DNA of 64,000 nt, from positions 32,001-96,000 of the forward strand of contig CAVYNY010000003.1 in assembly GCA_963769935.1 (NCBI GenBank), read 5' to 3'. Of this stretch, positions 13,230 through 33,135 are shown piece after piece. The notes under the pieces were generated by a model that made no database searches, had not been told where the DNA came from, and saw nothing but the letters and a program-made list of their open reading frames with translations. Numbering within the stretch: position 1 is the stretch's first letter; each line of letters starts with the position of its first letter. Both the position numbers and the translations under genes were made by a program. The DNA comes from an uncultured delta proteobacterium. Its GTDB lineage: Bacteria; Desulfobacterota; Desulfobacteria; Desulfobacterales; JAFDCJ01.

Positions 13230-13249
13230 ATTAAGGTCCAAGAATTAAT

Positions 13250-16768: not shown

Positions 16769-16797
16769 GTAGACCAATTTTATGACTGGCGCGTCTA
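16769..16797 (+). promoter_or_regulatory. Putative ECF sigma promoter, class A (GTAGAC-N17-CGTCTA)
   Basis: Same spacing and boxes as the copies at 26338 and 32573; upstream of the ECF sigma gene. Confidence 0.55.
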
Positions 16798-16955: not shown

Positions 16956-17606
16956 ATGTACAAACGTGATTTCCAAGCTCCTGAAATGGCTCCATCAGAT
17001 AAAACCACCACGACCTCTGAAACCTCCGACCAGCTGTTCTTGCTTGTTGAACAGGCTAAGGCAGGGAACCGCTCGGCCTTCGCCCAGCTGGCCGACCGAT
17101 TTCATGAAGATATTTATCGCATGGTTTACTACCGCATCAGATCCCGTCCCGATGCTGAGGATATTACCCAGGATGTGTTTTTAAAGATATTTCAAAAAAT
17201 ATCCGGCATCAAAGAGACGGCCAAGTTTCGCGGTTGGCTTTTTAGCATCACGCTGAACCGAATTCGGGATTTTCAGCGCAAAAAACGATTCCGGTCATTA
17301 TTCAAGGCCGAGGATGAAAGTATAGAGTCGCACGCGCCCGAACAAAGCGACCAAGATCAGCCTGATGCGCTGGACCATGTTTTAAAAAAGGATTTTTGGC
17401 GACAAATCGGTTTGATCCTGAACAAACTGTCAAAAATGGAAAAAGAAGTCTTTTTGCTGAGGTTTTTTGATCATCTCAGTTTAACTGAAATCGCGGGCGT
17501 CTTAAAAAAAAACGAAAGCACGGTCAAAACCCATCTGTATCGCGCGCTCGCCAAATTTAAAAGTGAACCCGCAATGCGACGCCTTCTCAATGAGGTTAAC
17601 AAGTGA
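16956..17606 (+). CDS. ECF RNA polymerase sigma factor
   Basis: Region 2 DAEDITQDVFLK...FRGWLFSITLN and region 4 LSLTEIAGVLKKNESTVKTHLYRA. Confidence 0.93.
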   Translation: MYKRDFQAPEMAPSDKTTTTSETSDQLFLLVEQAKAGNRSAFAQLADRFHEDIYRMVYYRIRSRPDAEDITQDVFLKIFQKISGIKETAKFRGWLFSITLNRIRDFQRKKRFRSLFKAEDESIESHAPEQSDQDQPDALDHVLKKDFWRQIGLILNKLSKMEKEVFLLRFFDHLSLTEIAGVLKKNESTVKTHLYRALAKFKSEPAMRRLLNEVNK

Positions 17607-18157
17607 ACTCAAATGACAACCACCATTTGGACGAGAATCAATTTATTAAAGCGGTAGTGGATGCATCCGACCTGCCGGAGGCCGTGCAGGCGCATTTGTT
17701 CACCTGCACTCAATGCCGGAACAGAAGGCAAAACTTTGAGCGGGAATTGACCAGTTTAGGCCAAATTGCCGGGCTGTCGGTACCGAAACCGCAAAGACGG
17801 ATCATTTTGCCGGCGCAAAAGTCCACAATCAGATTCTCAAGTTTCTTGGATTGGCGCAGCGTTATTGTGGCAGCGGCGACGGTTGCCGCTGTATTTATGG
17901 TTGTGTGGGGCACCAACATGGCACGCAATTTTTCCGAGCACCGAACCGAAAACCTGACAGCGGAAATACGGGATGCCAATCGACCCATGAGCGAAGTCAA
18001 CTCGCTTGTTGAAAATGCGCTGCCCCCATTTTATTTAGAAATCGCAGATGAACCAAAACCAGATTACGATGAAGAGTTTTATCAATTTTTGATTCCGCCT
18101 GTTGAAGATAAAACCGTAACCTCTGAGCAAGGGAATCGAGGAACTTCATTATGCTAA
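17603..18157 (+). CDS. Zinc-binding anti-sigma factor (ZAS-like) with one TM helix
   Basis: HLFTCTQC (HxxxCxxC), TM VIVAAATVAAVFMVVW; GTGA overlap with the sigma gene. Confidence 0.8.
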   Translation: MNSNDNHHLDENQFIKAVVDASDLPEAVQAHLFTCTQCRNRRQNFERELTSLGQIAGLSVPKPQRRIILPAQKSTIRFSSFLDWRSVIVAAATVAAVFMVVWGTNMARNFSEHRTENLTAEIRDANRPMSEVNSLVENALPPFYLEIADEPKPDYDEEFYQFLIPPVEDKTVTSEQGNRGTSLC

Positions 18158-18558
18158 GAAAGATATTCAGTGTCATCTTGCCGGTCATTTTTCTGGTTGC
18201 TCCATTGATTGCCGCGGCTCAGCACGGTCCAAGAGGCAAATGGTGGCATAACCCCCAGATTCAAAAGAATTTGAATTTGAACGAAAATGAAATCGGCAAA
18301 TTGGACCAGCTTTTTGCCAACATCCGCCCCAACCTGATCAAGCTTAAAACGGATGTCGAGCGCGAGCAATTTGAACTGGATCAACTCCTGAGCAAAAAAA
18401 AGGTCGACGATGCTGATGTTAAAAAGCAGTTCCAAAAACTGGAGCAAGCCCGTAAAAATCTTTCCAACGCACGCCTTGACTTTGTGATCGGCGTTCGCAA
18501 CATACTCGGTGCCGATCGCTTCCAGCAGCTCAAGTCCAACTTTCAGAAGTGGCAGTAG
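18151..18558 (+). CDS. Spy/CpxP/ZraP-like periplasmic protein
   Basis: Signal peptide, GKWW...LNLNENEI and terminal NILGADRFQQL (LTxxQ-like motifs); helical. Confidence 0.8.
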   Translation: MLRKIFSVILPVIFLVAPLIAAAQHGPRGKWWHNPQIQKNLNLNENEIGKLDQLFANIRPNLIKLKTDVEREQFELDQLLSKKKVDDADVKKQFQKLEQARKNLSNARLDFVIGVRNILGADRFQQLKSNFQKWQ

Positions 18559-18616
18559 AAAAAATTTTTCGCAACTCGGCCGGTAAGGACTTTTTTCTCC
18601 GTGGCACGGCAAAATT

Positions 18617-19366
18617 ATGGATCCGGCAGCAATTCTCGCTTCACGCGACATCCTGCAAAAAATAGAAACCGTTTGCAGTCGACAGTTCTCTGCTGAAAAC
18701 GACCGGGATGAGTGTTACATCTTCGTGCTTGACAGCCTCAAGGCCGACGATTTTAAGCGGCTGCGGGCCTTTAAAGGCAAAAGCAAATTATCCACCTATC
18801 TGTATTCTCTGATCAACTCCCTGGTTATTGATTTCAGACGCAAAAAATACGGCCGCCGGCGTGTCCCGGCCGCCGTGTTAAAACTCGGCAAGTGGGCTGA
18901 GGCAGTCTACCGGCTGGTGTGCTGGCAAAAGTTTTCCTTTGATGACGCCTATGATTTTCTGCGGGTTGACGGCCTGTATGACGGCAACTATGATCAGTTC
19001 ATACAGGAGATCGAGGCGATCCGGAATGCACCCTGCCGGGAAAATCCGACTTTTAAATCGATCGATGAACCAGACAGAAATTCGGTCCAGCATATGGAAG
19101 CTTCAGGCGCCGATCCGCTGGAGGACCTGATACAAGCGCTTGACAGGGAAAAAAGAATCACAGCCCTCAGGGTTATTCGCGCAACAACGGAGGCACTGCC
19201 GGAGCCCGATCAGATTCTGGTCAGGCTGGTGTTCGGCTCGGGGCAGCCGCTAAGTGCGGCTGCCAAAATCATCAACCTTTCTGCATCCGCAGCCCGCAAA
19301 CGGCTGCAGACTCTTTTATTAAAATACAGAGAAAGTTTGCTGGCCATTGGTATCCGCGAGCCGTAA
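18617..19366 (+). CDS. Atypical ECF-like sigma-70 family factor
   Basis: FKGKSKLSTYLYSLINSLVIDFRR (region 2) and LSAAAKIINLSASAARKRL (region 4 HTH), with a long insert between them. Confidence 0.75.
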   Translation: MDPAAILASRDILQKIETVCSRQFSAENDRDECYIFVLDSLKADDFKRLRAFKGKSKLSTYLYSLINSLVIDFRRKKYGRRRVPAAVLKLGKWAEAVYRLVCWQKFSFDDAYDFLRVDGLYDGNYDQFIQEIEAIRNAPCRENPTFKSIDEPDRNSVQHMEASGADPLEDLIQALDREKRITALRVIRATTEALPEPDQILVRLVFGSGQPLSAAAKIINLSASAARKRLQTLLLKYRESLLAIGIREP

Positions 19367-19379
19367 AATGTCCGTCTAA
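19350..19379 (+). promoter_or_regulatory. Putative ECF promoter, class B (GTATCC-N17-CGTCTAA)
   Basis: Shares atccgc...tgtccgtctaa with 20225-20253; overlaps the 3' end of the second sigma gene. Confidence 0.5.
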
Positions 19380-19435
19380 TTACTCTGCCTGATTATATTT
19401 TACTAGGTATGTTTAACAATTGAATAGAGGCAAAA

Positions 19436-20023
19436 ATGGGAAAATGGATCAATAAAAGCATGGCGCCAGCCGTTTCAGAGCAATCCGCTAATCATCCGGC
19501 CATCGAAGATATCGCGCGGCTGGCGGAAGGCAGGGTCGAGCAAGCTGAACGGGAACAATTCCTGCGCCATCTCAACCGATGCCAAAGATGCTACGAAATC
19601 CTGCAGGAAACCCTGATAGACATTGCCTCCGCCAGGCCTTTGCCAAAGGTTTCCGGTCCCTGGTGGAAATCCAAAATCTTTTATGCCTTGGCTGCCTCAA
19701 TTTTACTGGTCATTATCATCGGCGGGCGCCTGGTATTTGAACACCGCAATCAACATCCCCGGATCATAACCGCCACACTTGATATGGATCAGGAGTTAAA
19801 GGACATCCTGCTGGAAGGCGACACCCTGCGGTGGGAGAAGGGACCGCGGCTAAGCCGGCTGGTGGCTGCTCTGCACAAAAAAGGTCTGCAATTTAATGAT
19901 CTGAAAGCTGCTATCCTTGCGCAACCCTACTATCAGAAAAAAAGCCTGTTCGGTCCCGGGGAAGTCCTTCATATTCGCATCGAGAATGGCGTGGCCTATC
20001 TGAAGGTTAAAGAAAAAAACTAG
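19436..20023 (+). CDS. zf-HC2-type anti-sigma factor with a TM helix
   Basis: HP..EDIARLAEG...HLNRCQRCYE, then TM ALAASILLVIIIG. Confidence 0.8.
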   Translation: MGKWINKSMAPAVSEQSANHPAIEDIARLAEGRVEQAEREQFLRHLNRCQRCYEILQETLIDIASARPLPKVSGPWWKSKIFYALAASILLVIIIGGRLVFEHRNQHPRIITATLDMDQELKDILLEGDTLRWEKGPRLSRLVAALHKKGLQFNDLKAAILAQPYYQKKSLFGPGEVLHIRIENGVAYLKVKEKN

Positions 20024-20224
20024 CTTTATGCCCTGCAAATATATTTAAGTAGTCGACGGGAATACTCAATTAGAGTTGCAGCTTTGAACATAAAAAATTC
20101 CAAGCCCCAAATAACTGCTTTTTGGAATTTGAAATTTGCGATTTAGACCTACCTTGTCCCCTTCCCTCTATTCTCAATCCCTTTCGAAAAAAGACATCCC
20201 ACTCAAAAAAAAATAATGAATTAT

Positions 20225-20253
20225 TGATCCGCCATTACCATCTGTCCGTCTAA
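20225..20253 (+). promoter_or_regulatory. Putative ECF promoter, class B (TGATCC-N16-CGTCTAA)
   Basis: Near-duplicate of the 19350 motif; about 55 nt upstream of the 20309 start. Confidence 0.55.
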
Positions 20254-20308
20254 CAAGTTAAAAAGAAATCCTTCACTTTACCAACACAATGTCAAGAGGA
20301 GACCTGTC

Positions 20309-21157
20309 ATGTTAAAAGTGACGTTCAGCAGCTCGGCCCCGAATCCTCCAATTCGAACATGGCGTTGGGTGTTTCTTGGATTGGCCGTTTTTATTTTTAC
20401 TGTCCCGGGATTTCCGGCAGCTGCGAAACAACCCCCTACCATTCAGCTGTTTCCAACCACGGTGGTGGAAAATATCAAGCACACCGGAGAGGCGGCCAAA
20501 GCCATGGAACAGGACCTTCAGAGTGTGATTGACCGCCTGAATCAGCAGGAGGAGCTTTACCTGGCGAGCAAGTGCGAAGGGGCCGCAGCCGAACAGGGCT
20601 GCAATGAAATCGCCGGACAGCTGAGTCAAACCTATCTGGAGATGCTGACCTTGATGGAAACCCGCCTGCCGGGGATGGAGGATTCGGTCCGGGCCACGAA
20701 TACCAGCCTGGAAAGACGGATTCGCACGGAGTTGGGCCGCAAAACAACTCCCCGTGGTCTGCAAAAACTTGTAGATGGAACGCCGCAGCAATCAACTGAG
20801 TCTCCCCGCTACAAGCGAAGGGCGGGAAGACTGAGCGAAAAGTTCAGACAGTATTACAAACTGGTAGCCATGGCCCCCGGATCGGGCGCGGGTGGATCAC
20901 TGGCGGCAGTCGCCGCTGAAATTTACCTTGATACCCAGGAAGTGCAGGAACTTATTGCCCTCACCCGCGATGAAATCAGCCGCGCCAAACTCATGATTGA
21001 TCTCGATCAGGCATACGGCATCATCACGCCGGAAATGTTTGAGATGGTCGGCCGGGTGAAAACGATTATATTTGGCGAGACCGGAGAAGCGGAAGGCATA
21101 CCCAGTCCGCCGGCCGGCAGCGCTAAAGCAGAATATCGCAGCCCCCTTGAGATGTAA
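20309..21157 (+). CDS. Exported helical hypothetical protein
   Basis: Signal peptide ending PAAA-K, coiled-coil segments, a Cys pair; GAGGA RBS. Confidence 0.8.
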   Translation: MLKVTFSSSAPNPPIRTWRWVFLGLAVFIFTVPGFPAAAKQPPTIQLFPTTVVENIKHTGEAAKAMEQDLQSVIDRLNQQEELYLASKCEGAAAEQGCNEIAGQLSQTYLEMLTLMETRLPGMEDSVRATNTSLERRIRTELGRKTTPRGLQKLVDGTPQQSTESPRYKRRAGRLSEKFRQYYKLVAMAPGSGAGGSLAAVAAEIYLDTQEVQELIALTRDEISRAKLMIDLDQAYGIITPEMFEMVGRVKTIIFGETGEAEGIPSPPAGSAKAEYRSPLEM

Positions 21158-21194
21158 CTATGGAGGCGTTCGCCTATAACCGGAGGGTGTTATT

Positions 21195-21767
21195 ATGATT
21201 AAGCTACAAAGTAAAATGAATGCCTGGCGTTTCGACCAAATTTTTCTGATGTTGATAGTCCTCGCACTTTTTCCGGCGGCCTGCGGGAACCGGCAATATG
21301 TTAAACCCGGCTGCACGCTGCCTTCCGGCGTAAATCTTGAAGAAGCGTTGGCGCACTCAAGAGAAGATCTTGGGCACCTGGAGTGCGAAACCATGTTTGA
21401 CGGTTACTATATTAGACTCATTGAAGTCGCCAAACGCGACCCCGCAATACAAAACAAGCGCAAGTTCAGCGATTTTTTGGAATGGGCCAATGGGGAAGGC
21501 ATTATCGATAAGATCCAGGCTCGCGACTACTATAATCGCTACTTCAATACCACCTTCATGTCTCTGCCGGACGATTTTAATGTTTGCTCATCCTGCGCCG
21601 AGAAAACCCAAAAAGATCTCGAATCCCAGCTGGAAGAAGAACTCGGCCAGAAAGAAGAAGGGCTGTTGAGAGCGTGCCAGGATAAAAACGCCTATTACCT
21701 TGCGGCTGATCAATATAACTCCATCATGCTGCTGCTGGACGCCACCTGCACTGCCTGTCGGAACTGA
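21195..21767 (+). CDS. Cys-rich hypothetical lipoprotein
   Basis: Lipobox PAAC, plus CSSC, CTAC and additional Cys; GGAGG RBS. Confidence 0.8.
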   Translation: MIKLQSKMNAWRFDQIFLMLIVLALFPAACGNRQYVKPGCTLPSGVNLEEALAHSREDLGHLECETMFDGYYIRLIEVAKRDPAIQNKRKFSDFLEWANGEGIIDKIQARDYYNRYFNTTFMSLPDDFNVCSSCAEKTQKDLESQLEEELGQKEEGLLRACQDKNAYYLAADQYNSIMLLLDATCTACRN

Positions 21768-21791
21768 TATGACAAGCGAATGTCAGATAAT

Positions 21792-21909
21792 GCTGAGCAT
21801 CAGGACTGAATAACACGGACTGAGCAACGAGGACTGAGGACAGAGATGGAAAAAATTCGAGCGATGCAAACAGCGATACGTTCAGTCCTCAGCCCTCAGC
21901 CCTCATCAC
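21792..21909. repeat. Inverted pair of heptamer arrays (ggactga / tcagccc-type)
   Basis: Left arm gaggactgagga; right arm ttcagtcctcagccctcagccctca is its reverse complement. Confidence 0.65.
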
Positions 21910-21947
21910 TTTTTCGAGCAGAAACTAAATTTTAGGGAATTCATACG

Positions 21948-22661: not shown

Positions 22662-22790
22662 AGAAATGCAGGCATCAGGTGTTGAGAAAAAGCAAAAATA
22701 TCAGAAAGGTTTCAATCCCTGCACACCGCAACGGACAATGGACAAACGACAGCGGACTTTGAATAATTGGCGCTCAATTTGGAGCAATCG

Positions 22791-23627
22791 ATGCACCCTT
22801 TATATCCATCGCCAATATCTCTTATCCGGCCCGAGGCTTCCTTTTCAAATGAGGTGGAAGTGCTGCAGACGGATGTCATGCGATTTTTTGCGATATTATG
22901 TCTGTGCCTGATGGCGATATTTGCTCTGGTCAAAACCCTGCCCATGGCCCCTTCGACCGGTCCTCCCACGATGGTCGAACCCACGGACCTTAAAGCAGAT
23001 GTCGAAGCTCTGCAAAAACACATTGCCATGCTCAAAGAGAGGCTTGGGCAGTTAAGGACCCAAGTTCAGGCCGCCGCCGTCGACGCCGAAAAATCAACGA
23101 CCGTGGCTGCCGTTGCGGAAAAAAAAATTAAAGATGAAACGCAACACCTGGCAGAGATACAGGCAAAACTGAAGCGGGAAAGAGTAAAATTGAATCAACC
23201 TCGGTCGGAGAAAAAACCGGCTGAAATATTACCGGCTGAGCAAAAAAATCCGCCGCCTCAGACCGTCAGGCAAGGATTCAGCTTGCGTTTTGCCTCGGAT
23301 GCGGCGCTGCAAAAGCTGATCGACAGCGGGAAAGTAAATTTTTATGCATTAGCCGGGAAAAAAGCCTGGCAATTGCACCTGAGAGACGGACAGCCGGTCT
23401 ATTCGTCGACCCGATTTCCCAGTCAAATTCATGAAATGCAGACTCCCACCGTTCCCACTGAGTATACCGGGGCTTTTCACCGGCAGGTAGCGGCGTTCGG
23501 CCGCACCACGGTGACCTGGGGGGTGACGCTGCCTTCCCCAACTATGTCATCCATTAACCAGCTCATCAAAAGCCGACCCGGGGGTGATCTGATCATCACC
23601 GCGGCCGGCGAGGTCGTTATAAAATGA
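22791..23627 (+). CDS. MotB/ExbD-like single-pass membrane protein with a coiled coil and an uncharacterised periplasmic domain
   Basis: QTDVMRFFAILCLCLMAIFALV, with Asp at the start of the TM helix. ATG 22791 follows a GGAG RBS. No OmpA motif. Confidence 0.55.
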   Translation: MHPLYPSPISLIRPEASFSNEVEVLQTDVMRFFAILCLCLMAIFALVKTLPMAPSTGPPTMVEPTDLKADVEALQKHIAMLKERLGQLRTQVQAAAVDAEKSTTVAAVAEKKIKDETQHLAEIQAKLKRERVKLNQPRSEKKPAEILPAEQKNPPPQTVRQGFSLRFASDAALQKLIDSGKVNFYALAGKKAWQLHLRDGQPVYSSTRFPSQIHEMQTPTVPTEYTGAFHRQVAAFGRTTVTWGVTLPSPTMSSINQLIKSRPGGDLIITAAGEVVIK

Positions 23628-25222
23628 CAACCACCAACAACATCGGGACCGGGATCCGGCCGTACATTTTACTCTTGATTTTTATAGGGTTGTCGGCCTG
23701 CAGCGGCCATCAGGTGTACCATGAAGTTGGACTGCCGGCCGGCGGATCGTCGCTTGATACCTGGCTGGAAGATACCCTTATTCCATACCTGCTCCAGCAA
23801 CTCAGCCAGCACCCGCGCTTTAAAGGCCAACCCATTTTGTTGGTCGGCCTGCGCGGCGATGAGGTCCGCTCCCGCGCAGATGACTTGACGGGAGAGATCC
23901 GATCAAAAATCGGCGACGCGCTGCTGAAACAACCCGGTCTCGATCTTGCCTGGCAACCGACCGGCCCGCCACGAGAACACCATCAACGTCTCGCGGATGT
24001 CTCCTGTGGCACTTACCGCAAAATCCAATATTACATCGGTCTGGACTGCGGTTTGACCCGATTGGAGGGCAAGCTTTATGTAAAAGTGCGGGCCTTGAAC
24101 CTTGCCGAACAAAAATGGGTGACCGGCTTCGGCAAATCATGGGAAGGGCGGCCGACCGCAGCCCAGCTGGCGGCTCTGGCGCGCGAACATCCGGATGAAT
24201 ATTTGCGGGGTCGGCGCCAGCTGCCGTTTTCCGAGGAGCAGCCGGATTTGTTGGCTGCCTATTTGGCCCGCAATCTAAGCTGTGTTTTGCGGCAGGCCGA
24301 ATCCGATAATCTGGTGGTGCATGTTGCCAAACCATCCGCAAATTCCCCGGCAGTCTTTAAAACGGCCCTGGAACTTGTGGGAAACTACCTGGCGCGTTTT
24401 CGGGAGGTGGAAGTAACCGATGATCCGAACCAGGCCAATATCACCCTGGTATGCGAAATCCATGCCATCCATCAAGGCTTGCACCAGATCTGGGTCTCTG
24501 CCAGACACCGCCGTGATGAAAAATATCTGCCCGGCGCAGAGACTGAAGCGTATGTGTTGATTGATGCCCATGAACAGATGCAGGTCGCCGGCGCGCAGAA
24601 TGCAAGACCTTATGCGCCCCTGCCCTCCGCCGCGCGCCTATCGAATTCATCTGAACTAATAGCATCATTTGATCTACTGACGCCGATGAATCAGAATTCA
24701 TGTTCAACCGGCGCTCCCTGGCAGTCTGGTGTACGGCGGATTGACTCCCAGGAACGTATTCCGGGCGGCGGCTGTCTGGCCGTAGAAATGACGCTTTCGG
24801 CGGCGGCTTATGTTTTTTTGGTGGGTCAGGATGCCGGTGGTGAATTAACGCAAATGTTTCCATCTGTCTGCACCGGCCGGCAGGAAAATGATGCCCTGCT
24901 CCATCCCGGTCAGCTATTTCAATTTCCATCACTTTCAGATCCCAACGCCGGGGTACTGGAACTTACCGGTTCGCCCGGCAGGGAACGGGTTTTTGCAATT
25001 GCCATAACAAGCCCGGATCTGGCCGATCGATTTGCCGACCGGCTGGTGGAAGTCCAGGACCTGTGCCGACCCGGCAAAATATTTGCCGATAACCTAATAG
25101 CCGGTAATAGCCGAACCTCTGCCGAAGGTATTTATCAATGGCAAGACTACTTGATCCGGCTTTCGGCTGATAATCCCGGTTTGGTCCAGTGGCAGGCAAT
25201 CAGCTTCTGGCACGAGCCGTAG
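23624..25222 (+). CDS. Lipoprotein with a C-terminal DUF4384-like domain
   Basis: Lipobox LSAC; AYVFLVGQDAGGELTQMFP...PGRERVFAIA fits the DUF4384 pattern; ATGA overlap. Confidence 0.75.
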   Translation: MTTTNNIGTGIRPYILLLIFIGLSACSGHQVYHEVGLPAGGSSLDTWLEDTLIPYLLQQLSQHPRFKGQPILLVGLRGDEVRSRADDLTGEIRSKIGDALLKQPGLDLAWQPTGPPREHHQRLADVSCGTYRKIQYYIGLDCGLTRLEGKLYVKVRALNLAEQKWVTGFGKSWEGRPTAAQLAALAREHPDEYLRGRRQLPFSEEQPDLLAAYLARNLSCVLRQAESDNLVVHVAKPSANSPAVFKTALELVGNYLARFREVEVTDDPNQANITLVCEIHAIHQGLHQIWVSARHRRDEKYLPGAETEAYVLIDAHEQMQVAGAQNARPYAPLPSAARLSNSSELIASFDLLTPMNQNSCSTGAPWQSGVRRIDSQERIPGGGCLAVEMTLSAAAYVFLVGQDAGGELTQMFPSVCTGRQENDALLHPGQLFQFPSLSDPNAGVLELTGSPGRERVFAIAITSPDLADRFADRLVEVQDLCRPGKIFADNLIAGNSRTSAEGIYQWQDYLIRLSADNPGLVQWQAISFWHEP

Positions 25223-25400
25223 AGAAAGGACACTAATTGTATTTGAATTGAAAATACTCTGCTGCCGATGTCGGAAGGATCCATTTTGACCAAATGGCGC
25301 AAGGCAGACGGCGCAGGGTATTTGTGCTCGTCTTAATATGATGCCATTAGCTCGGGTAACAGGTAGTCCATGAGGTGCAGTTCACAACCGGTAACCCGAG

Positions 25401-25465
25401 ACACGCACCTCGTAAGCCGAAACACGTAACTCGCAACCCGTAACTCGCAACCCGTAACTCGCAAC
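25401..25465. repeat. Heptamer-period tandem array (cgtaact/cgcaacc)
   Basis: cgtaactcgcaacc repeated about three times immediately before the ATG at 25466. Confidence 0.75.
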
Positions 25466-26289
25466 ATGACTCAACTGCACATTATCACTAAACTAATTAT
25501 CTGCCTGGCCTTGCTTGGATATGGTCAACAGGCGGCAGGCGCCCTTAAAGAAGCCGGATCGGATATTGAGGCGCTGTGGCGCCTTTTTCTGGCCAACGAT
25601 GCGCTGAAATCCCCTGTGATCAGTTTCCCTTATGATCACTGTTTTAATACGGCCGCCCAAAAATATGATCTACCTTTATCACTTCTTCTGGCCGTGGCGC
25701 GCGGTGAATCCGACTTTAATCCCAGAGCCCGGTCGGATCGCAACTGCCACGGATTGATGCAAATCCAGTGGCCCGGAACAGCCAAACATCTGGGAATCTA
25801 TCGACTTGCGGCGCTGTATGAGCCGTGCACCAATATTAGCGCCGGAGCCCGATATCTGAGGGAGCTTATGGACCGCTATGATCAAAATCTGCATCTGGCC
25901 CTGGCGGCATACAACTACGGGCCGAATCGCATCCAGCCCAAAGCCGGACCGGGCCGTATTCCTCAGGGCGCCCAATGGTACAGCGGCTATATTTACCATC
26001 ACCTGGAATTTGTCACCCAGGGGGGGACGCCGCATCCGGCGGCGCAGCGGGCAAAGGGTCGGCCTACGGCCGTGAAAAGCGGCTGGCAATCATAACGTTT
26101 AACCGGCCATATCGAGCGAGCGCATTTTACCGGCACCTTCAAGAACAGGCACCTGCGCTGAAACTCGATTGGTATCGTATCGGTTTGGGAAGGTTTCAGG
26201 TGGTGATGCGGTTCACGGATAAAAAAGCACTGGAAGCCGGCCGCAAAAAATTAAGAACTCTGGGAGTGATCGTCAAAGCCAGGAAATGA
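25466..26289 (+). CDS. Lytic transglycosylase (SLT domain) with a C-terminal SPOR-like tail, frameshifted at a G7 run
   Basis: ARGESDFNP, GLMQI, ALAAYNYGP. The frame continues in ORF 25975..26289 if one G is added at 26020-26026. Confidence 0.85.
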
Positions 26290-26337
26290 GATGGAATGCC
26301 GGACCAATGATGTTGAAAAAATCAGCTAAATTATTTT

Positions 26338-26364
26338 GTAAACCTTTTTTTAACCTTATACGTC
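26338..26364 (+). promoter_or_regulatory. Putative ECF promoter, class A (GTAAAC-N17-CGTC)
   Basis: Same boxes and spacing as 16769 and 32573; upstream of the caspase genes. Confidence 0.5.
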
Positions 26365-26440
26365 ACACTCAATAGAAATTTTTTGTTATATAGTTTCATA
26401 TGAGCGCCGCGGCTCTGAGAGCGTCATCTGATAGTGGAAG

Positions 26441-26615
26441 AAATTCGATGTAGTTTTATAAGTGCCCTCACCGCTGAGAGTCACAGAGAGCGCAGAGATT
26501 ACATTAAAATTTTCTTTCGTCGGCGTTCTCGGCAGGCTCTGCGGTGAACTATCAGTTTCTTTTTCGATCAGATCGGCCGTTGTTTTGACAATGCGGCTTT
26601 GGCGCTGAAACCTGA
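26441..26615 (+). repeat. Dispersed MITE-like intergenic element, copy 1
   Basis: Aligns by eye to the reverse complement of 38455-38663 (aaattcgatg...ctcaccgctgagag...ggtgaactat...gatcag.cggccgttgttttg...gctgaaacctga). Confidence 0.8.
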
Positions 26616-26733
26616 CATCTGTTAACCTAATTTTTGCAATTTTAAATTATCAACGTTCTCAACTTCTCCCGAATAGAGTCTTGGAAAATGCAAGGGGCAA
26701 AATACCTAAAAAGCAAAAATTAGCGGAGTTCTT

Positions 26734-28158
26734 ATGGCTGACAAAAATAAAAAGCTCGGCGGTTTTTGGTCCTATCTTCTCTGGCTGCTGCTGATGTCAT
26801 TGGTCCTCGTTTCAACCTCCAGGGGTGAAGATCGGGCCCTGCTGATCGGTGTCGGACGGTATGCGCATTTCGAAGAAAAGCTCAACGGCGTCAGTCTGGA
26901 TCTCGGCATGATGAAAGAATTATCACAACTGATGGGATTTAAGGAACATGCAATTAAGGTGCTGGAAAATGAGCAGGCATCTACCGCCGGGGTTAATGAG
27001 GCGATTGAAGACTGGTTGATTCGGGGCACCGGACCGCAGGACCGGGTCCTGTTTTATTTCAGCGGGCACGGCTCCCAGGTTCCGGATGAAAACAACGATG
27101 AAAAGGATCATTTTGATGAAGTGCTGCTGCTCTATGATGTGACCCTCACGGAAAGGCAAGGCCGGCAGACATTGAACGGTGTTTTGCTCGATGATCAATT
27201 CGGCAGCATGCTGGCAAAAATCAAAAGCCGCAACATTCTGGTCATTCTCGATGCCTGCCACAGCGGCAGCGCAACCAGGAGCATCCGGCTGACCACCCGG
27301 TCTATTCCGATACACAACGCTCAGGTGAAATACTTCTATTATTCGCCGATGCTGGAGGCAGCCGGCGGCAGCGGCCGGTTCGATGTGATGGAGCCGGATG
27401 CTTCACCGGCGGCTGCAGGCCGCTATGTGGCAATTTCGGCCTGCCGCGACGATGAGATGACGCTTGCCACCGCCCAGGGAAGCATATTCACACTCGGGCT
27501 GCGCGAGACCTTGCGTGCGGCGGCCAGGGCCGGAAAAAGCATTTCGCCCGCAGAATTACAGCGCCGGACGACCCGATTCATTCAGGAACAAATAGGATCC
27601 GAAGGGGCTGCATTTCATCCCCAGATTGCCGGCCAAAAATCCCTTCTTGAGCGTCCTTTGGAACTGGTCTCACTTGCCGGAGGAAGCGGCCCGGTGCGTC
27701 AAAATCTGGAAGCATTGATGCATAAAAGCCATGAAACCGTCTGGATCAATTTAAACAAAATCTGTTTTGAACCTGGCGACGTACTTGAAATATCCGTCAG
27801 ATTATCCGAACCGGGGTATTTGAATGTCGTCAGTGTTCGTCCGGATGATCAGGCCACGGTGCTGTTTCCAAACCAATATCACCGACAGAATGCCGTTGAC
27901 CGGGGCGCGTTGACCCTACCCACCCGTCAGATGAACTTTGAATTGGTGGCCGACGGCCCCCCGGGCACCATTCTGATAACGGCCTTTCTGACCCCTTCAC
28001 CGGTGGACGGCTACAAAAACGGCTTCAAGACCCCGGAGGATGTGATGGCGGGTCTCTCACCCGGTACAACGCGCTCCTTGATGCTGCGCCAAAACCAGGA
28101 CTGGCTGGCCGCCGGCAGGGTAGCCGTTGAAATGCGGGAAAAAGGAGGATGCAGGTGA
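26734..28158 (+). CDS. Exported caspase-family (peptidase C14) protease with C-terminal DUF4384
   Basis: Signal peptide; RALLIG, FYFSGHGS (His), ILDACHSG (Cys); PGDVLEISV...GYLNVVSV...VLFPN...GPPG fits DUF4384. Confidence 0.9.
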   Translation: MADKNKKLGGFWSYLLWLLLMSLVLVSTSRGEDRALLIGVGRYAHFEEKLNGVSLDLGMMKELSQLMGFKEHAIKVLENEQASTAGVNEAIEDWLIRGTGPQDRVLFYFSGHGSQVPDENNDEKDHFDEVLLLYDVTLTERQGRQTLNGVLLDDQFGSMLAKIKSRNILVILDACHSGSATRSIRLTTRSIPIHNAQVKYFYYSPMLEAAGGSGRFDVMEPDASPAAAGRYVAISACRDDEMTLATAQGSIFTLGLRETLRAAARAGKSISPAELQRRTTRFIQEQIGSEGAAFHPQIAGQKSLLERPLELVSLAGGSGPVRQNLEALMHKSHETVWINLNKICFEPGDVLEISVRLSEPGYLNVVSVRPDDQATVLFPNQYHRQNAVDRGALTLPTRQMNFELVADGPPGTILITAFLTPSPVDGYKNGFKTPEDVMAGLSPGTTRSLMLRQNQDWLAAGRVAVEMREKGGCR

Positions 28159-29036
28159 AATATTTTTTCAAGTTTATCGCTGTCTTGTCGCTAATAATTT
28201 TTACCTGTATTCCCGTGGCGACCCGTATTTCAGCTGCTATGGACTGCCGTCTGGGTGCTGATTACTACTACCAGGCCAAATCCGAAGCCGATCCGCAGCA
28301 GGCTATCCTCTGGTTGAAGCGGTCGGCGCAAGTATGCCCCAATTTCAATGCCTGGTATATGCTCGGGATGATATACACCCGCCAAGGAGAAATTGATCCC
28401 GCCATGGCCGCTTTTATGCGGGCCAGGACCCAGGCTGTTTCCTCCAAAACCGAAGCCCTGGCCCTGGCCCGCCAGGGCGAACTGCTGGCCCGCTCCGGTC
28501 AGCTGCCCCGGGCCCAGCAGGCCCTGGAACTGGCTGGACGGTTTTATCCTGCACCTGCGCCGGCTTGGCTGGAGGCATCTCTTAAGAATACCAGAATTAA
28601 ACTGCAGCAGTCGCTGATAACAGCAGCCGATATCAAGTATGTACTTGAATCCGGCACGCAATTAAGCAAAGACGGCCGATTTGCGGTTCGCCCGGCAGTG
28701 AACCTGCCGGTGCACTTTGACTTCGACCGGGCGGATCTGAATTCAGCCGGCAGCCGTCAGGTGATGGAACTGGGTGGTGCCCTTTCCCACGCAACATTGA
28801 AGCAGTGGTCTTTTCTGCTGGTCGGCCATACCGACAAGCGCGGATCCATGGCCTACAATCAGACGCTCTCCGAAAGTCGCGCCTCTTCGGTAAGGATAGA
28901 ATTGGAACACAGCTTTCCTTCGCTCATCGGCAGGCTGCAAGCCATGGGACGCGGCGAGACCGAATTACTGTACGACGGCGACAGCGAAGAAGATCATATG
29001 CTCAATCGCCGCGTGCAGGTGACGCTTTATCATTGA
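28149..29036 (+). CDS. TPR + OmpA-family peptidoglycan-binding protein
   Basis: Signal peptide; TPR-like AWYMLGMIY...; VHFDFDRADL, VGHTD, NQTLSESRA, NRRV. Confidence 0.9.
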   Translation: MQVKYFFKFIAVLSLIIFTCIPVATRISAAMDCRLGADYYYQAKSEADPQQAILWLKRSAQVCPNFNAWYMLGMIYTRQGEIDPAMAAFMRARTQAVSSKTEALALARQGELLARSGQLPRAQQALELAGRFYPAPAPAWLEASLKNTRIKLQQSLITAADIKYVLESGTQLSKDGRFAVRPAVNLPVHFDFDRADLNSAGSRQVMELGGALSHATLKQWSFLLVGHTDKRGSMAYNQTLSESRASSVRIELEHSFPSLIGRLQAMGRGETELLYDGDSEEDHMLNRRVQVTLYH

Positions 29037-29217
29037 AAATTGAAGATTGAAGATTGAAGATTGAAGATTTATGGAGTCGCCTCGCTCCAACTTTCAATTT
29101 AAATATTTTCAAAACCAAATCCGTTTGCAGCAAGATGTTTAATTGATAATGCGATATTTAAAATTTTGGCTAAAATCGATAGGATTCCGCCAATTTTCAA
29201 TCTTCAATTTTCAATAA
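29032..29217. repeat. Element bounded by inverted heptamer arrays (ttgaaga)n / (tcttcaa)n
   Basis: Left arm attgaaaattgaagattgaagattgaagattgaagatt, right arm caattttcaatcttcaattttcaat; internal ggagtcgcctcgctcc. Confidence 0.75.
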
Positions 29218-29254
29218 ATTACATTTCACCCTGATTAGGAATCTGTTTGTACCA

Positions 29255-32200
29255 ATGATTAGAGGACATAAAAAAATAGCGCTGTTGACGATATTGCTCT
29301 GGCTGGCCGGCGGCATTTCCCTGCCTGCCCTTGCTGAAAATCATGCCCTGCTGATCGGTATCGGCAAATACCGGCAGCGCACACTGGAGGGGCCGCCCTA
29401 TGATGTTGCGGCGCTTTCTCGAGTGCTTGCGGCGCAGTATGATTTTCAAAAGGAAAATATCCGTACGCTCGTAAATGAAGAAGCCGTCAAGTCCAGAATC
29501 CTTTCTGAGATCGAGCGTCTGACGCATCACACCCATCCCGGAGACCGGGTATTCATTTATTTCAGCGGTCACGGAACCAGCCGCCGGGATGAAGTGCTGG
29601 CGCTTCCGCTGCCGTACAGCACCGGTGCGCTGGTGCCGGCTGATTTTGAGGCTGATCCCGCTCAACCGGTTGAAAAACTGCTGTCGCAGCTGATCATCGG
29701 CAGACGCGACCTGCGGCCGGCGCTGGAGCGACTTGATCGGGACCGACAGGTCCTGATGGTTTTTGATACCTGTTTTTCAGGCAATACCATCCGAGCCATT
29801 GGAAATCATAAAACCGCAAATTTAAGCCGCTACCTCCCGCTGCCGTCAAGAAGTGTCTTCAAAGCGGAGCGGGAAATTGGAAGCTTTGAGGAAAATTTGA
29901 ATCTGGATGACCCATATCCCTATCAAAATATTTTTTATATTTCGGCGGCTTCGGAAAATGAAGTCGCCAAGGATATCCAAAAAGATACCTTGGACTTATA
30001 TCCGACCATTGACGGCAATCCCCATGGGGTTCTGACGGACGCCCTTTTAAGGGTGCTGGCGGGACAAATGCGCGTCGACACCGACAACGACGGCCGGTGG
30101 AGCCAGATTGAGCTGTATGCGGCTGTCAAAAAAGAGGTTCAACGGCGCTTCCAACAATCGCCGCAGGCCTTGCCCAAGGTAGGGACCCGCACCGATCGGC
30201 TGTATTCGAGAACCTTTTTTGTGCGTTCGGCAAAAGCGGTTGCCACAGCAGGCGGGCACCCGGCCGAACCGGCGCCCGGCCGCCAGGGCGCGAATTATCA
30301 ATCGGGTTATTCTTCTTCCCATGCGCTGGTGGTTGGCATAAACGAATATCGACACTGGCCGCGGCTCGAATATGCCGCCAATGATGCCAGGGCAATGGCC
30401 GCCAGGTTGAAAGCACAGGGCTTTCAGACTTACCTGCTCACCGATGAGCAGGCCACGCTGAAAAATATTCTGGCCGGACTGGAAACGATTCGCCGCAGCA
30501 TTGATGAGAATTCACGGATGATGTTCTATTTTGCCGGGCACGGTCAGACCGAGGACCTGCCTGGAGGACGGGAAAGAGGGTATATCGTGCCGGTGGATGC
30601 GGATGCCTACAACTGGCAGCGTACGATGCTGCCCATGGATCGGTTGAATCAAACTATCAGGCAGTTCAAAGCCAAACATATCCTTATGGCCTTTGACTCC
30701 TGTTACTCCGGACTGGGGTTGACTCGCTCGATAAAAGGTCGTCCCGATCCGGATTCCGCCTACATTCAGAAAATGATGCACTCCCGAAGTATTCAGATAC
30801 TGACAGCGGGCAGCCGTTCCGAGCAGGCCATTGAAGCTGCCGGCCACGGACTGTTCACGGACCAACTGCTGGCCGCCCTCGCGGGGGCGGCGGATATTAA
30901 TTCCGACGGATACATTACGGCGACCGAAATTTATGCCACCCTGCGTCCGGCCATAACCCAGAAGTCCTATAGCCGCCAGACCCCGCAGTTCGGCTATATC
31001 GAGGGCAACGGCGATATTATTTTTCTTAATACTTCCCGCGAACCAGAACCTGCCGCCGTTGTTGTTGATACTGCAATTAGCGGCATCGACGTATGGGCCG
31101 GCACCTCTGAAATCGGTCACCGCCTGCCGGCCGGACGGCATCAGTTACCGGCTCTTGCGGGGCAAACAGCTCTGATCGTTAAAAAGGGCGGACGCACCCT
31201 TTATCGAAAGAATGTGCTGCTGTCCGCCAACAGGGTGTTTTCAATCCAGATCGGCGCAACCATTGCGACATCACACCCGCCGGAAGCATTTTCCACGATT
31301 ACTATTGCCAATCATAGCGTCGACAATTATTCAAATTCGATTGCCTATGATCTGGACGGTGACGGCCGGGAGGAGATGGTGACCGCCTCGGATAACCGGC
31401 TTTTTGCTTTCAGGTCCGACGGCACCATCATCTGGGAAAAAAAATTCCATTTCCCGATCACCTTGGATCTGATTGATGACTGGAATTCGCAGCCGGCCAT
31501 TGGGCTGTCCGCCGTGAATGAGGATACAGTTCACCTGGTGCTGCTTGACCAGCGGGGAGAGCAAATTTGGCAGCATGTCCGAAAACTTACCCGCTATTAC
31601 AACGGCAAAACCGACGGCGGGGGAAAGATTGCCGGGCTGGCGGACGTCGACCGGGACGGCCGCCAGGACGTCGTGGCCTTTGCCACGGCAGAATACACCT
31701 TAAAGCCCCGCGGCATCATCGTGTACGACGGTCGTGCCCGTGAACTGTGGCGCTACACAATCGGACCCGCTCCACAAAGCATCGTTGTCTGGCAAAAAGA
31801 TTCAGGACGACCCGACATCATCATCGGAACGTACAGCCCGGGCGACGGAAATCGCGACTTAACCAACAACACCAGCGATATGCAAACCTACATCATCAGT
31901 GTCGACGGTTTTGGCAAAGCAAACTGGCAGATCCCGGTCGGCGGGTTTTACAGCGGGGTTGTCGTGCTGCCGGCCGGTCTGAAGGACCCTGCCCGTCGCT
32001 TTCTTTACGCCCATACCTATACGTCATCTCTTTATCGGGAAGATGTCGGCGCCATATATAAGATCTCACGATCCGGTCAAGTTCTTAATCGCTTTGAGAC
32101 CCAAAATTCAATTTTAAGTGTGGCGGTTGCTGAAGCTGACCAAAATGGACGGGAATATCTGTATGCGGCCGATAACAAGGGCAACCTGTTAAGACTGGAT

Positions 32201-32563
32201 GAGCGCTTGAATCTGCTCCAGAGAAAGCCCTTGACTGCTGGACCGGCTGCTTCCCAGGTCAGACTGGTGGGGGTTCATGATTATGACGGCGATGGTTATA
32301 AAGACCTATTGCTTTACTCCTTTAATCGCCTGCTGTCCGCCAAGAATCCTCTGGCAGAAACGGGTCCGAATGACGCCGGGTTCTTCTCCCAGTTAAAGTT
32401 TCAGGTCATTTCAAAGGACTTTTCCAGGGTTTTGAAGAGTGTAACCATTGCCGCAGAATGGGAAAAATGGCGGGGATTTGCCGTCAAGGACCTGGACCGA
32501 CCGGATACGACGTATTATCCGTTTATGGCACTGAGCGATAAATTAACGATATTTAACTACTAA
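29255..32563 (+). CDS. Exported tandem double-caspase (two C14 domains) protein with a C-terminal FG-GAP/VCBS-like beta-propeller
   Basis: Signal peptide; dyads FSGHG/FDTCFSG and FAGHG/FDSCYSG; repeats DLDGDGREE, DVDRDGRQD, DYDGDGYKD. Confidence 0.9.
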   Translation: MIRGHKKIALLTILLWLAGGISLPALAENHALLIGIGKYRQRTLEGPPYDVAALSRVLAAQYDFQKENIRTLVNEEAVKSRILSEIERLTHHTHPGDRVFIYFSGHGTSRRDEVLALPLPYSTGALVPADFEADPAQPVEKLLSQLIIGRRDLRPALERLDRDRQVLMVFDTCFSGNTIRAIGNHKTANLSRYLPLPSRSVFKAEREIGSFEENLNLDDPYPYQNIFYISAASENEVAKDIQKDTLDLYPTIDGNPHGVLTDALLRVLAGQMRVDTDNDGRWSQIELYAAVKKEVQRRFQQSPQALPKVGTRTDRLYSRTFFVRSAKAVATAGGHPAEPAPGRQGANYQSGYSSSHALVVGINEYRHWPRLEYAANDARAMAARLKAQGFQTYLLTDEQATLKNILAGLETIRRSIDENSRMMFYFAGHGQTEDLPGGRERGYIVPVDADAYNWQRTMLPMDRLNQTIRQFKAKHILMAFDSCYSGLGLTRSIKGRPDPDSAYIQKMMHSRSIQILTAGSRSEQAIEAAGHGLFTDQLLAALAGAADINSDGYITATEIYATLRPAITQKSYSRQTPQFGYIEGNGDIIFLNTSREPEPAAVVVDTAISGIDVWAGTSEIGHRLPAGRHQLPALAGQTALIVKKGGRTLYRKNVLLSANRVFSIQIGATIATSHPPEAFSTITIANHSVDNYSNSIAYDLDGDGREEMVTASDNRLFAFRSDGTIIWEKKFHFPITLDLIDDWNSQPAIGLSAVNEDTVHLVLLDQRGEQIWQHVRKLTRYYNGKTDGGGKIAGLADVDRDGRQDVVAFATAEYTLKPRGIIVYDGRARELWRYTIGPAPQSIVVWQKDSGRPDIIIGTYSPGDGNRDLTNNTSDMQTYIISVDGFGKANWQIPVGGFYSGVVVLPAGLKDPARRFLYAHTYTSSLYREDVGAIYKISRSGQVLNRFETQNSILSVAVAEADQNGREYLYAADNKGNLLRLDERLNLLQRKPLTAGPAASQVRLVGVHDYDGDGYKDLLLYSFNRLLSAKNPLAETGPNDAGFFSQLKFQVISKDFSRVLKSVTIAAEWEKWRGFAVKDLDRPDTTYYPFMALSDKLTIFNY

Positions 32564-32572
32564 CAGACGACG

Positions 32573-32601
32573 GTAAACAAAATCGACGCGTCGTGCGTCT
32601 A
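32573..32601 (+). promoter_or_regulatory. Putative ECF promoter, class A (GTAAAC-N17-CGTCTA)
   Basis: Matches the 16769 motif; about 95 nt upstream of the glycine-zipper gene. Confidence 0.55.
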
Positions 32602-32697
32602 TCAGGCTAAAATTCGACAAACCAAAACCTATGGGAACCGGCACACTGCGGGTGTCCGGCAATCAACCAGCCGCTGCACAGAAAGGAGGACGTCCAG

Positions 32698-33135
32698 GTG
32701 AAAACAATATCAAAAGGCATTTTTATTTTAATTGGATTGGTTATTGTTGCATCATGCGCCGGCCGACAATACGATCGTTACAATACCCAGCGCGGTGCGG
32801 CAATCGGCGCCGGCTTTGGCGCACTGACGGGACAGCTTATCGGCCGCGATACCAGAAGCACGCTTATCGGTGCCGGTGTCGGGACCCTGGTGGGCGCTAT
32901 CTTCGGAAACGCAGTTGATCAGGAGCGCCAGATTGCCAGAGAAGCGGCCGTAACGAATAGAAGAATTGTTTACTACGATCAGCAGGAAGGCCACGCTCTC
33001 GAAGCGATCCCCGGCCCCGAGGACCGGCACACAAAATGCCGCAAAGTAACCAAACGCGAGTGGGACAAGGGGTATCTTGTCAGCGAGCGAGTTGAAGAAA
33101 TTTGTGAGGGGGAAAAGGTATCACAAATGTATTAA
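32698..33135 (+). CDS. Glycine-zipper lipoprotein
   Basis: Lipobox VASC; GAAIGAGFGALTGQLIG...LIGAGVGTLVGAIFG; AGGAGG RBS. Confidence 0.88.
   Translation: MKTISKGIFILIGLVIVASCAGRQYDRYNTQRGAAIGAGFGALTGQLIGRDTRSTLIGAGVGTLVGAIFGNAVDQERQIAREAAVTNRRIVYYDQQEGHALEAIPGPEDRHTKCRKVTKREWDKGYLVSERVEEICEGEKVSQMY

Follow-up and report, generated by a model that had tools for sequence, protein, structure and literature searches.

Does a run of fifteen co-oriented genes from an uncultured delta proteobacterium encode a single envelope machine? The genes lie in a 64,000-nucleotide stretch of contig CAVYNY010000003.1 (the window). The original prediction, made from the letters of this DNA, had taken them for one system in which extracytoplasmic function (ECF) sigma factors control exported caspases, a MotAB-like ion motor, a lytic transglycosylase (SLT) and an OmpA-TPR protein. 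We recovered all 15 open reading frames (ORFs) on the + strand (Table 1). The prediction was right in that a conserved core with co-occurring genes exists, but the 15 genes are not a single unit. They form three layers: the core; sigma2 and anti-sigma2 together with the caspase arm; and sigma1, anti-sigma1 and a Spy-like gene, a trio that is a loose neighbour. The conserved unit is a core of six genes, which encode the proteins u1 and u2, a MotA-like protein, its MotB-like partner, an LpoB-like/DUF4384 lipoprotein and the SLT; with a further gene, which we call gene X, the core has seven.

All coordinates are positions in the window, and every cluster feature lies on its + strand. Pfam and NCBIfam back the labels sigma1, sigma2, Spy-like, DUF4384, SLT, Peptidase_C14 (three domains), TPR plus OmpA, FG-GAP and glycine zipper; the same scan gave no family match for u1, u2, the MotA-like protein and the MotB-like partner (ORFs starting at 20309, 21195, 21948 and 22767). 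Export and membrane signals were called by a hydropathy and lipobox scan, a heuristic and not SignalP. As had been claimed, all 13 of the 13 non-sigma proteins have an N-terminal hydrophobic stretch or a transmembrane (TM) helix, and the heuristic places lipoboxes at Cys30 of u2 (21195), Cys26 of the DUF4384 lipoprotein (23624) and Cys20 of the glycine-zipper lipoprotein (32698). Each cluster gene is single-copy in the 8.0 Mb genome (G000), whose close relatives are Desulfobacterales.

How widely is the core kept? Clustered at 90%, the relatives of the MotA-like protein number 2805. A scan of a species-genome collection with this protein returned 306 stretches, among them some from Woeseiaceae, from tubeworm and gutless-worm symbionts and from sediment Desulfobacterales; we analysed the best 80, which are 23 Desulfobacterota and 57 Gammaproteobacteria loci, and restricted the synteny counts to loci with sufficient flank. 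Around the MotA-like gene we found u2 in 76/76 loci, u1 in 72/73, the partner, directly adjoining, in 75/75, the lipoprotein in 65/70 and the SLT in 54/60. For u1 the one exception is L066, where an ORF matches u1 as well as u2. Thus, the core genes co-occur, in synteny, across both groups, as the prediction had required. In the genus, 11 of 22 genomes have the MotA-like protein, and the same 11 have sigma2. No match to the MotA-like protein was found in 50,697 phage and 72,556 plasmid records. The most divergent cores (G032 and G245; L156:7117-10077 and L157:854-5907) carry at least two extra large exported proteins or lipoproteins after the SLT, one with a DUF6844 domain, and beyond these TPR, LPP20-like or OmpA proteins.

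What might power such a core? The MotA-like protein keeps two glycine/threonine motifs, G113-xxx-T117-xx-G120 and G153-xxx-A157-L158-x-T160-T161-xx-G164. Its most conserved residues are G113, T117, G120, G153, A157, L158, T161 and G164; T117 is present in 132/132 sequences and T161 in 127/132. The motifs are in register with Gly141, Thr145 and Gly148 and with Gly170-Thr178-Gly181 of Escherichia coli TolQ, in which Thr145, Thr178 and the Asp of the partner are named as essential in PMC12905483. An hhalign comparison with 34 PF01618 domains aligned the two pore helices (probability 21.6%, score 28; shuffled maximum 17.6 over 100 column shuffles). Four of 51 distant members reach PF01618 at 16-18 bits, below the cut-off of 22.9, and Atlas clusters annotated with PF01618, at 0.88 and 0.81, are leads only. 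The partner has a single TM helix, a coiled coil, a Pro-rich linker and a C-terminal domain; its Asp36 is invariant in 58 sequences and stands just ahead of the hydrophobic stretch 40-56. These residues and this layout suggest that the pair is probably an ion motor. Canonical tolQ-tolR-tolA-type and motAB-type loci are present elsewhere in the genome, and the cluster is therefore an extra system. A complex prediction with four MotA-like and two partner TM chains, which is not the native 5:2 stoichiometry, scored 0.01; it gives no verdict and was used neither way.

Other results weigh against a motor, and some of them can be read in favour of a rival explanation in which the two proteins are a passive scaffold in the membrane, to which the SLT and the lipoproteins are tethered. 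None of the 63 close MotA-like members matches PF01618 or any other Pfam family, and in Pfam and NCBIfam the pair matches neither MotA, TolQ or ExbB nor MotB or ExbD. In HMMER the MotA-like family stays closed at 254 clusters (50% identity) and shows no sign of running over into MotA/TolQ/ExbB, a far larger family. The hhalign probabilities for motor homology, 10-22%, are weak by score; a Protein Data Bank (PDB) profile search with the MotA-like alignment had no motor among its matches; the Pro ahead of the first TolQ motif is Phe110 here; and no SHLS-motif transducer of the TolA/TonB type was found in the cluster. However, the invariant sites are the motor-motif Thr, the small Gly residues and an Asp at the start of the partner's TM helix, and the genes stand in the order A subunit, then B subunit. 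We consider a passive scaffold unlikely and keep the ion motor as the preferred reading.

For the rest of the partner, Pfam and NCBIfam showed no OmpA/MotB peptidoglycan-binding domain, a PDB profile search gave coiled coils only among the 60 best rows, and no usable Atlas match was found for the C-terminal domain (about residues 165-286). A SPOR-like identity for that domain was rejected by hhalign comparison. In G063 the partner (L158:1008-2117) has a fibronectin type III domain inserted ahead of the coiled coil.

Two further core proteins point to the cell wall. The SLT gene reads in the window as a 209-amino-acid (aa) ORF. Its domain is real, with 39/39 members matching PF01464 and an invariant catalytic Glu81, but the ORF is truncated by a one-base deletion in the G-run at 26019-26025. 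Of four DNA runs, three cover the site, and the contigs of all three and of one RNA-library run have an extra G there, and the relatives are mostly about 260-300 aa long. Thus, the gene runs to 26289 and the frameshift is an assembly error. The C-terminal domain of the full-length SLT is homologous to that of gene X (93%). Neither domain matches SPOR (PF05036) in Pfam; in hhalign they align with SPOR at 44% (SLT) and 52% (gene X), above reversed and shuffled controls. Gene X encodes a TM helix, a linker and this small domain, and its TM helix has an invariant G6/G10 pair (GxxxG, not SHLS). It occurs in 39/44 Gammaproteobacteria loci vs 3/16 Desulfobacterota loci, and was not found in G000.

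The core lipoprotein, as modelled, has a middle domain with the LpoB fold, an N-terminal alpha/beta domain similar to it and a C-terminal Ig-like DUF4384 domain. Residues 205-313 of the model superpose on LpoB (4q6l) with Z 8.5 and a root-mean-square deviation (rmsd) of 3.1 over 103 aligned residues (Foldseek probability 1.0, E 3e-3); the related folds PelC and TraT reach 6.5 and 6.2. A fold shared with LpoB, the PBP1B activator, does not by itself show a function, and no penicillin-binding protein (PBP) recurs among the core's neighbours. DUF4384 scores in 16 of 51 lipoprotein members, and a PDB profile search with the lipoprotein alignment gave nothing meaningful. The same is true of such a search with u2, which also has no Pfam match; its Cys30 is invariant in 57 sequences.

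How would the cluster be switched on? The original prediction had proposed ECF control, and this is supported by two conserved ECF-type promoter motifs. An ECF sigma factor, an adjoining membrane anti-sigma factor and a conserved promoter ahead of targets are all present, although anti-sigma1 and anti-sigma2 score weakly (E 1e-4 to 0.02). Both motifs were spotted by eye and counted in the same related loci, so that the following counts show how well the motifs are conserved and do not test them independently. In 16/16 loci with a co-oriented sigma2, motif B (TGTCCGTCTA) stands between sigma2 and anti-sigma2; it also precedes u1 in 18/20 Desulfobacterota vs 1/51 Gammaproteobacteria loci; the two Desulfobacterota loci that do not have it ahead of u1 also have no sigma2 in the locus. 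Motif A, whose CGTC we take to be an ECF-type -10 element, stands ahead of caspase 1 in 12/15 loci, ahead of the sigma1 orthologues in L006, L008, L013, L015 and L086, and in full after caspase 2 in L023 and L034. The genome background per 400 nucleotides is 0.6% for motif B and 0.08% for motif A. A scan for sigma-70 promoters and terminators gave chance levels only.

Sigma2 is the likely regulator of the core in this lineage. We infer that sigma2 likely reads motif B and that sigma1, or a similar ECF factor, likely reads motif A. Sigma1 adjoins the cluster in 4/16 Desulfobacterota loci, is present in 6/11 genus genomes holding the core, lies about 0.86 Mb away in G401 and could not be located in a further four genomes. 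Because three types of loci in which sigma1 is distant or lacking keep motif A, another ECF factor may read it there. A PDB profile search found no close solved relative of sigma2. Gammaproteobacteria cores are often flanked by a response regulator, a histidine kinase and a PepSY gene (response regulator in 9/32 long loci).

Around these regulators we made some further observations. Outside the cluster, four more exact TGTCCGTCTAA sites occur in G000, at C18:186065 (-), C30:21534 (-), C32:255008 (+) and C22:404834 (-), and mark candidate additional members of the sigma2 regulon. In L021-L023 and L034, a different, divergently transcribed ECF sigma factor (31-36% identical to sigma1) replaces the sigma1 trio upstream of sigma2; in L023 it is accompanied by a zf-HC2 anti-sigma factor and a DUF3106 protein. 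In a Desulfobacter genome (L065:5565-7688), a sigma-70 region 2 protein, a putative zinc anti-sigma factor and a Lon_C-like protein stand ahead of the core, a set that we take to resemble protease-released sigma modules.

Are the caspases part of the same system? All three C14 domains keep their catalytic residues, as predicted: His112/Cys175 in caspase 1, and His106/Cys173 and His429/Cys483 in caspase 2. The C14 matches (PF00656) have E values of 2e-18 and 5e-35, all three dyads are conserved in relatives, and that of caspase 1 is kept in 13/13 homologues. The predicted export is likely, to judge from the signal-like N-termini. In L006, L009, L010 and L017 caspase 2 is split into two genes whose products both start with a signal-like N-terminus of their own, support for export that does not depend on the fusion in the window. 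The sequence [TS]R[GS] occurs in the caspases at 3.6-4.8 per 1000 aa against a background of 0.79, in some cases just after the catalytic Cys. This enrichment fits self-activation, and we regard the motif as a candidate self-cleavage site. Core proteins of the caspase lineage have 0-1.3 per 1000 aa and anti-sigma2 has none. Cleavage of the core or of anti-sigma2 by the caspases at this motif thus found no support; gene X is an exception, with two sequences only.

Caspase presence was counted where a locus extends 2.5 kb or more past the SLT. In such loci, a C14 gene lies beside the core in 13/14 Desulfobacterota, most of which belong to one genus-level clade, vs 0/38 Gammaproteobacteria loci. 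Because none of these 38 Gammaproteobacteria cores has a nearby caspase, the core works without caspases. The proposal of a single machine that couples proteolysis to the motor is not supported: 38/38 Gammaproteobacteria cores have no caspase nearby, the caspase arm has a separate motif A, and the core is not enriched in [TS]R[GS].

This result invites a second rival explanation, in which the caspase arm is a separate exported-caspase cassette that hitch-hikes next to the core without being functionally linked to it. The arm's own promoter motif, the lack of Arg-motif enrichment in core proteins and anti-sigma2 and the dominance of one clade in the 13/14 count all agree with it. Additionally, operons with caspases, OmpA and sigma factors are widespread (PMC3501461). 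However, within the genus caspase 1 was found only in genomes with the core (10/11 with the core vs 0/11 without), and DUF4384 occurs in both modules. The association also holds in reverse. Among 52 metagenome loci anchored on TPR-OmpA, with 28 matches to the OmpA domain only set aside, the upstream side carries caspase 1 and core genes (SLT or lipoprotein) in 16/16 loci; on the downstream side, where the flank suffices, caspase 2 is present in 28/28 and the glycine-zipper gene in 12/14. Five caspase-free core genomes yielded no caspase 1, and four of them hold other C14 genes; in a 401-genome sample of the phylum, just one other genome has a caspase 1 relative (27%).

A more telling argument against hitch-hiking comes from distant Desulfobacterota, in which the MotA-like protein is 29-47% identical and the core is flanked by unrelated caspases. 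In G032 the core is flanked by C14-Sel1 and C14-FGE proteins, two of that genome's three C14 genes. In G063 a C14 gene, one of three in the genome, is directly 3' of the lipoprotein. The core of L026 is flanked by C14-PEGA-OpuAC, WD40-C14 and C14-DUF4384 proteins. Between types, the caspases flanking distant cores (G032, G063, L024, L026) are mostly 15-32% identical. Elsewhere, an exported trypsin follows the core in place of a caspase (L065), no C14 gene was found in G339, and both C14 genes of G245 are on another contig. The MotA-like tree is a quick tree with several long branches and does not fix the number of independent caspase gains. We consider mere hitch-hiking improbable and favour caspases that are co-regulated with the core. 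In L026 (L026:1-8106), the genes immediately upstream of the core encode PBP1c, a bacterial alpha-2-macroglobulin and a DUF4384 protein. A TGTCCGTC motif precedes the DUF4384 gene, and the three caspases are found downstream; this locus pairs a protease trap with proteases.

The variety of flanking proteases, in which C14 is joined to DUF4384, a propeller, Sel1, FGE, PEGA-OpuAC or WD40, or is replaced by trypsin, could also be explained if the core were an energised machine for export or contact delivery. In such a machine the SLT would open the wall, u1 would form a helical channel or pore, and the variable caspases would be cargo for neighbours or the matrix. The patchy distribution of the system would fit, and so, at first sight, would u1. 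Its AlphaFold2 model (predicted local distance difference test, pLDDT, 72) is a helical bundle with generic helical-bundle matches only (best Z 10), and among natural proteins the best matches include two of the ClyA family, YaxB (Z 9.3, rmsd 4.7, 146 aligned) and PaxB (Z 8.8). However, ClyA-family values of Z 7-9 are at the level of generic helical bundles, do not reach the Z of about 13 under which the tool warns for such bundles, and are exceeded by designed ones. We judged the ClyA-like hint to be generic on these grounds. Moreover, a hydropathy scan found no hydrophobic segment in u1 besides the signal peptide, the conserved neighbours include no recurrent gene for a beta-barrel, an ATPase or an immunity-like protein, and the Gammaproteobacteria cores have no caspase near them (0/38). 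Delivery has, in our estimate, only a small chance of being correct. The Cys89/Cys98 pair of u1 is invariant across relatives.

We return to a function at the wall. Gene content, synteny, conserved residues and promoter motifs are observed, and our preferred reading is that the cluster may be a stress-induced, ion-powered module for cell-wall remodelling with co-regulated, self-processing periplasmic caspases. We hold it tentatively, at slightly less than an even chance. In its favour, the core combines an SLT, SPOR-like and LpoB-like domains and a likely ion motor with envelope-type regulators in both lineages. Besides the weak motor scores, these points tell against it: the SPOR assignment stands at just those hhalign values of 44-52%; the related loci and genomes are kin, and not independent, in every count; and five genus genomes that are 92-97% complete do not have the system, a patchy spread that would also fit defence or competition.

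Based on these data, we propose the following model, in which trigger, force and substrates are what we infer. Envelope stress would release sigma2 from its membrane anti-sigma factor, and sigma2 would then read motif B, so that more anti-sigma2 and the core are transcribed. A pentamer of the MotA-like protein may surround a dimer of the Asp-bearing partner. As protons pass, the coiled-coil arm of the partner would transmit force into the periplasm, where the SLT, positioned by its SPOR-like domain, would cut glycan strands. The LpoB-fold lipoprotein, u2 and u1 could form an outer scaffold. The second part of the model concerns the caspase arm. Its motif A promoter, read by sigma1 or a similar ECF factor, would drive expression of the caspases, of TPR-OmpA as an anchor to the wall and of the glycine-zipper lipoprotein. 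The proteases would probably activate themselves by cleavage after Arg, and clear or process periplasmic proteins in the same response. They would be co-regulated partners, which the motor does not require.

A bolder version would see in the cluster a 5:2 ion-driven envelope machine of a new class, whose motor family lies outside Pfam, which has no TolA/TonB transducer and in which a coiled-coil B subunit drives an SLT; Desulfobacterota would repeatedly have coupled periplasmic caspases to it. This is possible, but we regard it as doubtful. If it were true, bacterial caspases would gain a defined extracytoplasmic job, in energised wall repair or attack.

Table 1. Features of the cluster in the window.
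Feature	Position	Strand	Description
Promoter motif A	16768..16795	+	TGTA[AG]AC-N15-17-CGTC, before sigma1; likely ECF promoter
ECF sigma1, 216 aa	16956..17606	+	Pfam/NCBIfam Sigma70_r2/r4_2; loose neighbour
Likely anti-sigma1	17603..18157	+	CxxC, one TM helix (87-103), NF052375 E 1.4e-4
Exported Spy/CpxP-like (Metal_resist) protein	18151..18558	+	PF13801 E 2.7e-9; Spy NF007769 E 8e-4
ECF sigma2, 249 aa	18617..19366	+	TIGR02937 45.3 bits vs cut-off 42.9
Promoter motif B, TGTCCGTCTAA	19369..19379	+	Directly 3' of sigma2 stop codon, 5' of anti-sigma2
Likely anti-sigma2	19436..20023	+	zf-HC2-like HxxxCxxC (zf-HC2 E 0.016), one TM helix (81-97), periplasmic domain
Promoter motif B	20243..20253	+	Ahead of core operon
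u1, exported all-helical core protein	20309..21157	+	Invariant Cys89/Cys98 pair; AlphaFold2 pLDDT 72
u2, Cys-rich core lipoprotein	21195..21767	+	Cys30 invariant
Divergent MotA/TolQ/ExbB-like membrane protein, core, 237 aa	21948..22661	+	Conserved Gly/Thr motifs
MotB/ExbD-like single-TM partner, core	22767..23627	+	Invariant Asp36; start may be ATG at 22791
LpoB-like/DUF4384 lipoprotein, core	23624..25222	+	AlphaFold2 pLDDT 77, LpoB fold match
Exported lytic transglycosylase (SLT), core	25466..26289	+	PF01464 E 7e-27; Glu81; SPOR-like C-terminal domain
Promoter motif A	26337..26364	+	Ahead of caspase arm
Caspase 1	26734..28158	+	Signal peptide, Peptidase_C14 (His112/Cys175), DUF4384
TPR-OmpA protein	28149..29036	+	Signal peptide, TPR, OmpA-like peptidoglycan-binding domain; PF00691 E 1e-11
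Caspase 2	29255..32563	+	Signal peptide, two C14 domains, FG-GAP beta-propeller
Degenerate promoter motif A	32572..32601	+	Ahead of glycine-zipper gene
Glycine-zipper lipoprotein	32698..33135	+	PF13441/PF13488

The surroundings of the cluster show several other features. Just 5' of sigma1, at 15918-16457, is a gene for a stand-alone PocR sensory-domain protein (PF10114, E 7.5e-18). Before it, at 11145-15957, lie four co-oriented genes for a thiolase-type protein, an alpha/beta hydrolase, an AMP ligase and an NAD-dependent dehydrogenase, which from their translations we take to be an oleABCD-like cluster for olefin synthesis; an OleD-like gene is also found upstream in L015. Within the cluster, the intergenic repeats at about 26470-26590 and at 29037-29216 have very high contig depth and loose ends, which suggests that they are multi-copy elements in these bacteria, and there are short tandem units around 21790-21910 and 25390-25465. 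Two RNA libraries from a single study gave contigs, mostly 90-99% alike, that cover 30/30 and 29/30 bins of the cluster; this coverage does not by itself show transcription. At the junction of caspase 1 and TPR-OmpA (about 28154-28240), close relatives in the two RNA-library runs swap about 85 bases for 207 others.

Does the cluster belong to a system that is already known? The original prediction had suggested phage defence or contact killing among its possible functions, and neither found positive support. In a Zorya-like system against phages or predators, the motor would sense a breach of the envelope and the caspases would execute the response. A MotA-like protein, an OmpA domain and caspases together resemble, as we see it, Zorya and the caspase defence systems, and we counted this for defence, along with the alpha-2-macroglobulin and PBP1c genes of L026 and the sigma, putative anti-sigma and Lon_C-like genes of L065. 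However, the PADLOC check gave no matching system, as had been predicted: its hits are generic (caspase, OmpA-domain ZorB) and none falls on the MotA-like protein or its partner. No ZorC/D/E-type or nuclease gene recurs among the neighbours, and the phage and plasmid collections hold no MotA-like match. We consider defence very improbable. The cluster and Zorya share a MotAB-type pair and an OmpA domain in the neighbourhood. In contrast to ZorA, the 237-aa MotA-like protein has no long cytoplasmic tail; in contrast to ZorB, the OmpA domain sits on a separate, soluble TPR protein, and it alone is matched by the ZorB models, with no PADLOC match to ZorA, ZorC, ZorD or ZorE.

The claim of novelty holds for the core within the literature searched and has to be qualified for the caspases. 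Exported caspases next to genes for OmpA and sigma-70 have been published before: the consulted part of PMC3501461 (2012) describes bacterial caspases that likely have signal peptides, and it notes OmpA in 14 operons, sigma-70 genes as neighbours and, in Deltaproteobacteria, operons with several caspases. These prokaryotic ortho/metacaspases share with ours the C14 His/Cys dyad, the N-terminal signal-like helix and the OmpA and sigma neighbours, but that part of the paper makes no link to a motor-SLT core and assays no exported member. A description of the motor-SLT operon was not found in the literature searched, which largely left out subscription journals and excluded supplements (Dataset S1/Table S2 of PMC3501461 could include similar caspase arms); nor is the operon described in the portions seen of bioRxiv 2022.08.17.504292, PMC7475262, PMC12204202, PMC13104615 and PMC12905483. 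The cluster offers a candidate 5:2 motor with a complete, compact parts list, key residues (Asp36, Thr117, Thr161 and Glu81) and predicted promoters. Additionally, the exported bacterial caspases noted since 2012 gain a genomic context in which to search for substrates.

Craspase (Csx29/Csx30/Csx31/RpoE) likewise combines a caspase-clan protease with an ECF sigma factor, in a Desulfobacterales system, but Csx29 is an RNA-triggered TPR-CHAT protease, unlike the caspases described here (bioRxiv 2022.08.17.504292, which also mentions DUF4384). Unlike Craspase, our cluster has no cas genes, and its anti-sigma factors are membrane proteins that do not carry the caspases' Arg motif. Closer parallels are found among the ion motors. 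With Tol-Pal and Ton the cluster shares the TolQ/ExbB Thr motifs and a single-TM partner with an Asp, and in this lineage the likeness extends to an OmpA/Pal-like domain, a TPR (weak CpoB/YbgF match, E 1.5e-5), a beta-propeller and an LpoB-fold lipoprotein. Unlike those systems, it has no PF01618 or ExbD match and no SHLS transducer, its partner has a long coiled coil and a C-terminal domain of no assigned family, and its operon includes the SLT, u1 and u2. The Agl-Glt gliding machinery of Myxococcus, like our cluster, has TPR/OmpA-type envelope proteins; Pfam and NCBIfam name no Glt homologue in the cluster, and the partners are others. The two would also have in common an ion motor working with a lytic transglycosylase, for which AglRQS with AgmT sets the precedent (PMC13104615). 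Flagella, Ton, Tol, gliding, type IX secretion and Zorya all run on 5:2 ion motors, and according to a survey of 2025 further systems of this kind are still to be discovered (PMC12204202). In sum, we regard the cluster as a genuine variant of the 5:2-motor trans-envelope systems that the literature searched does not describe, with a caspase arm restricted by lineage.

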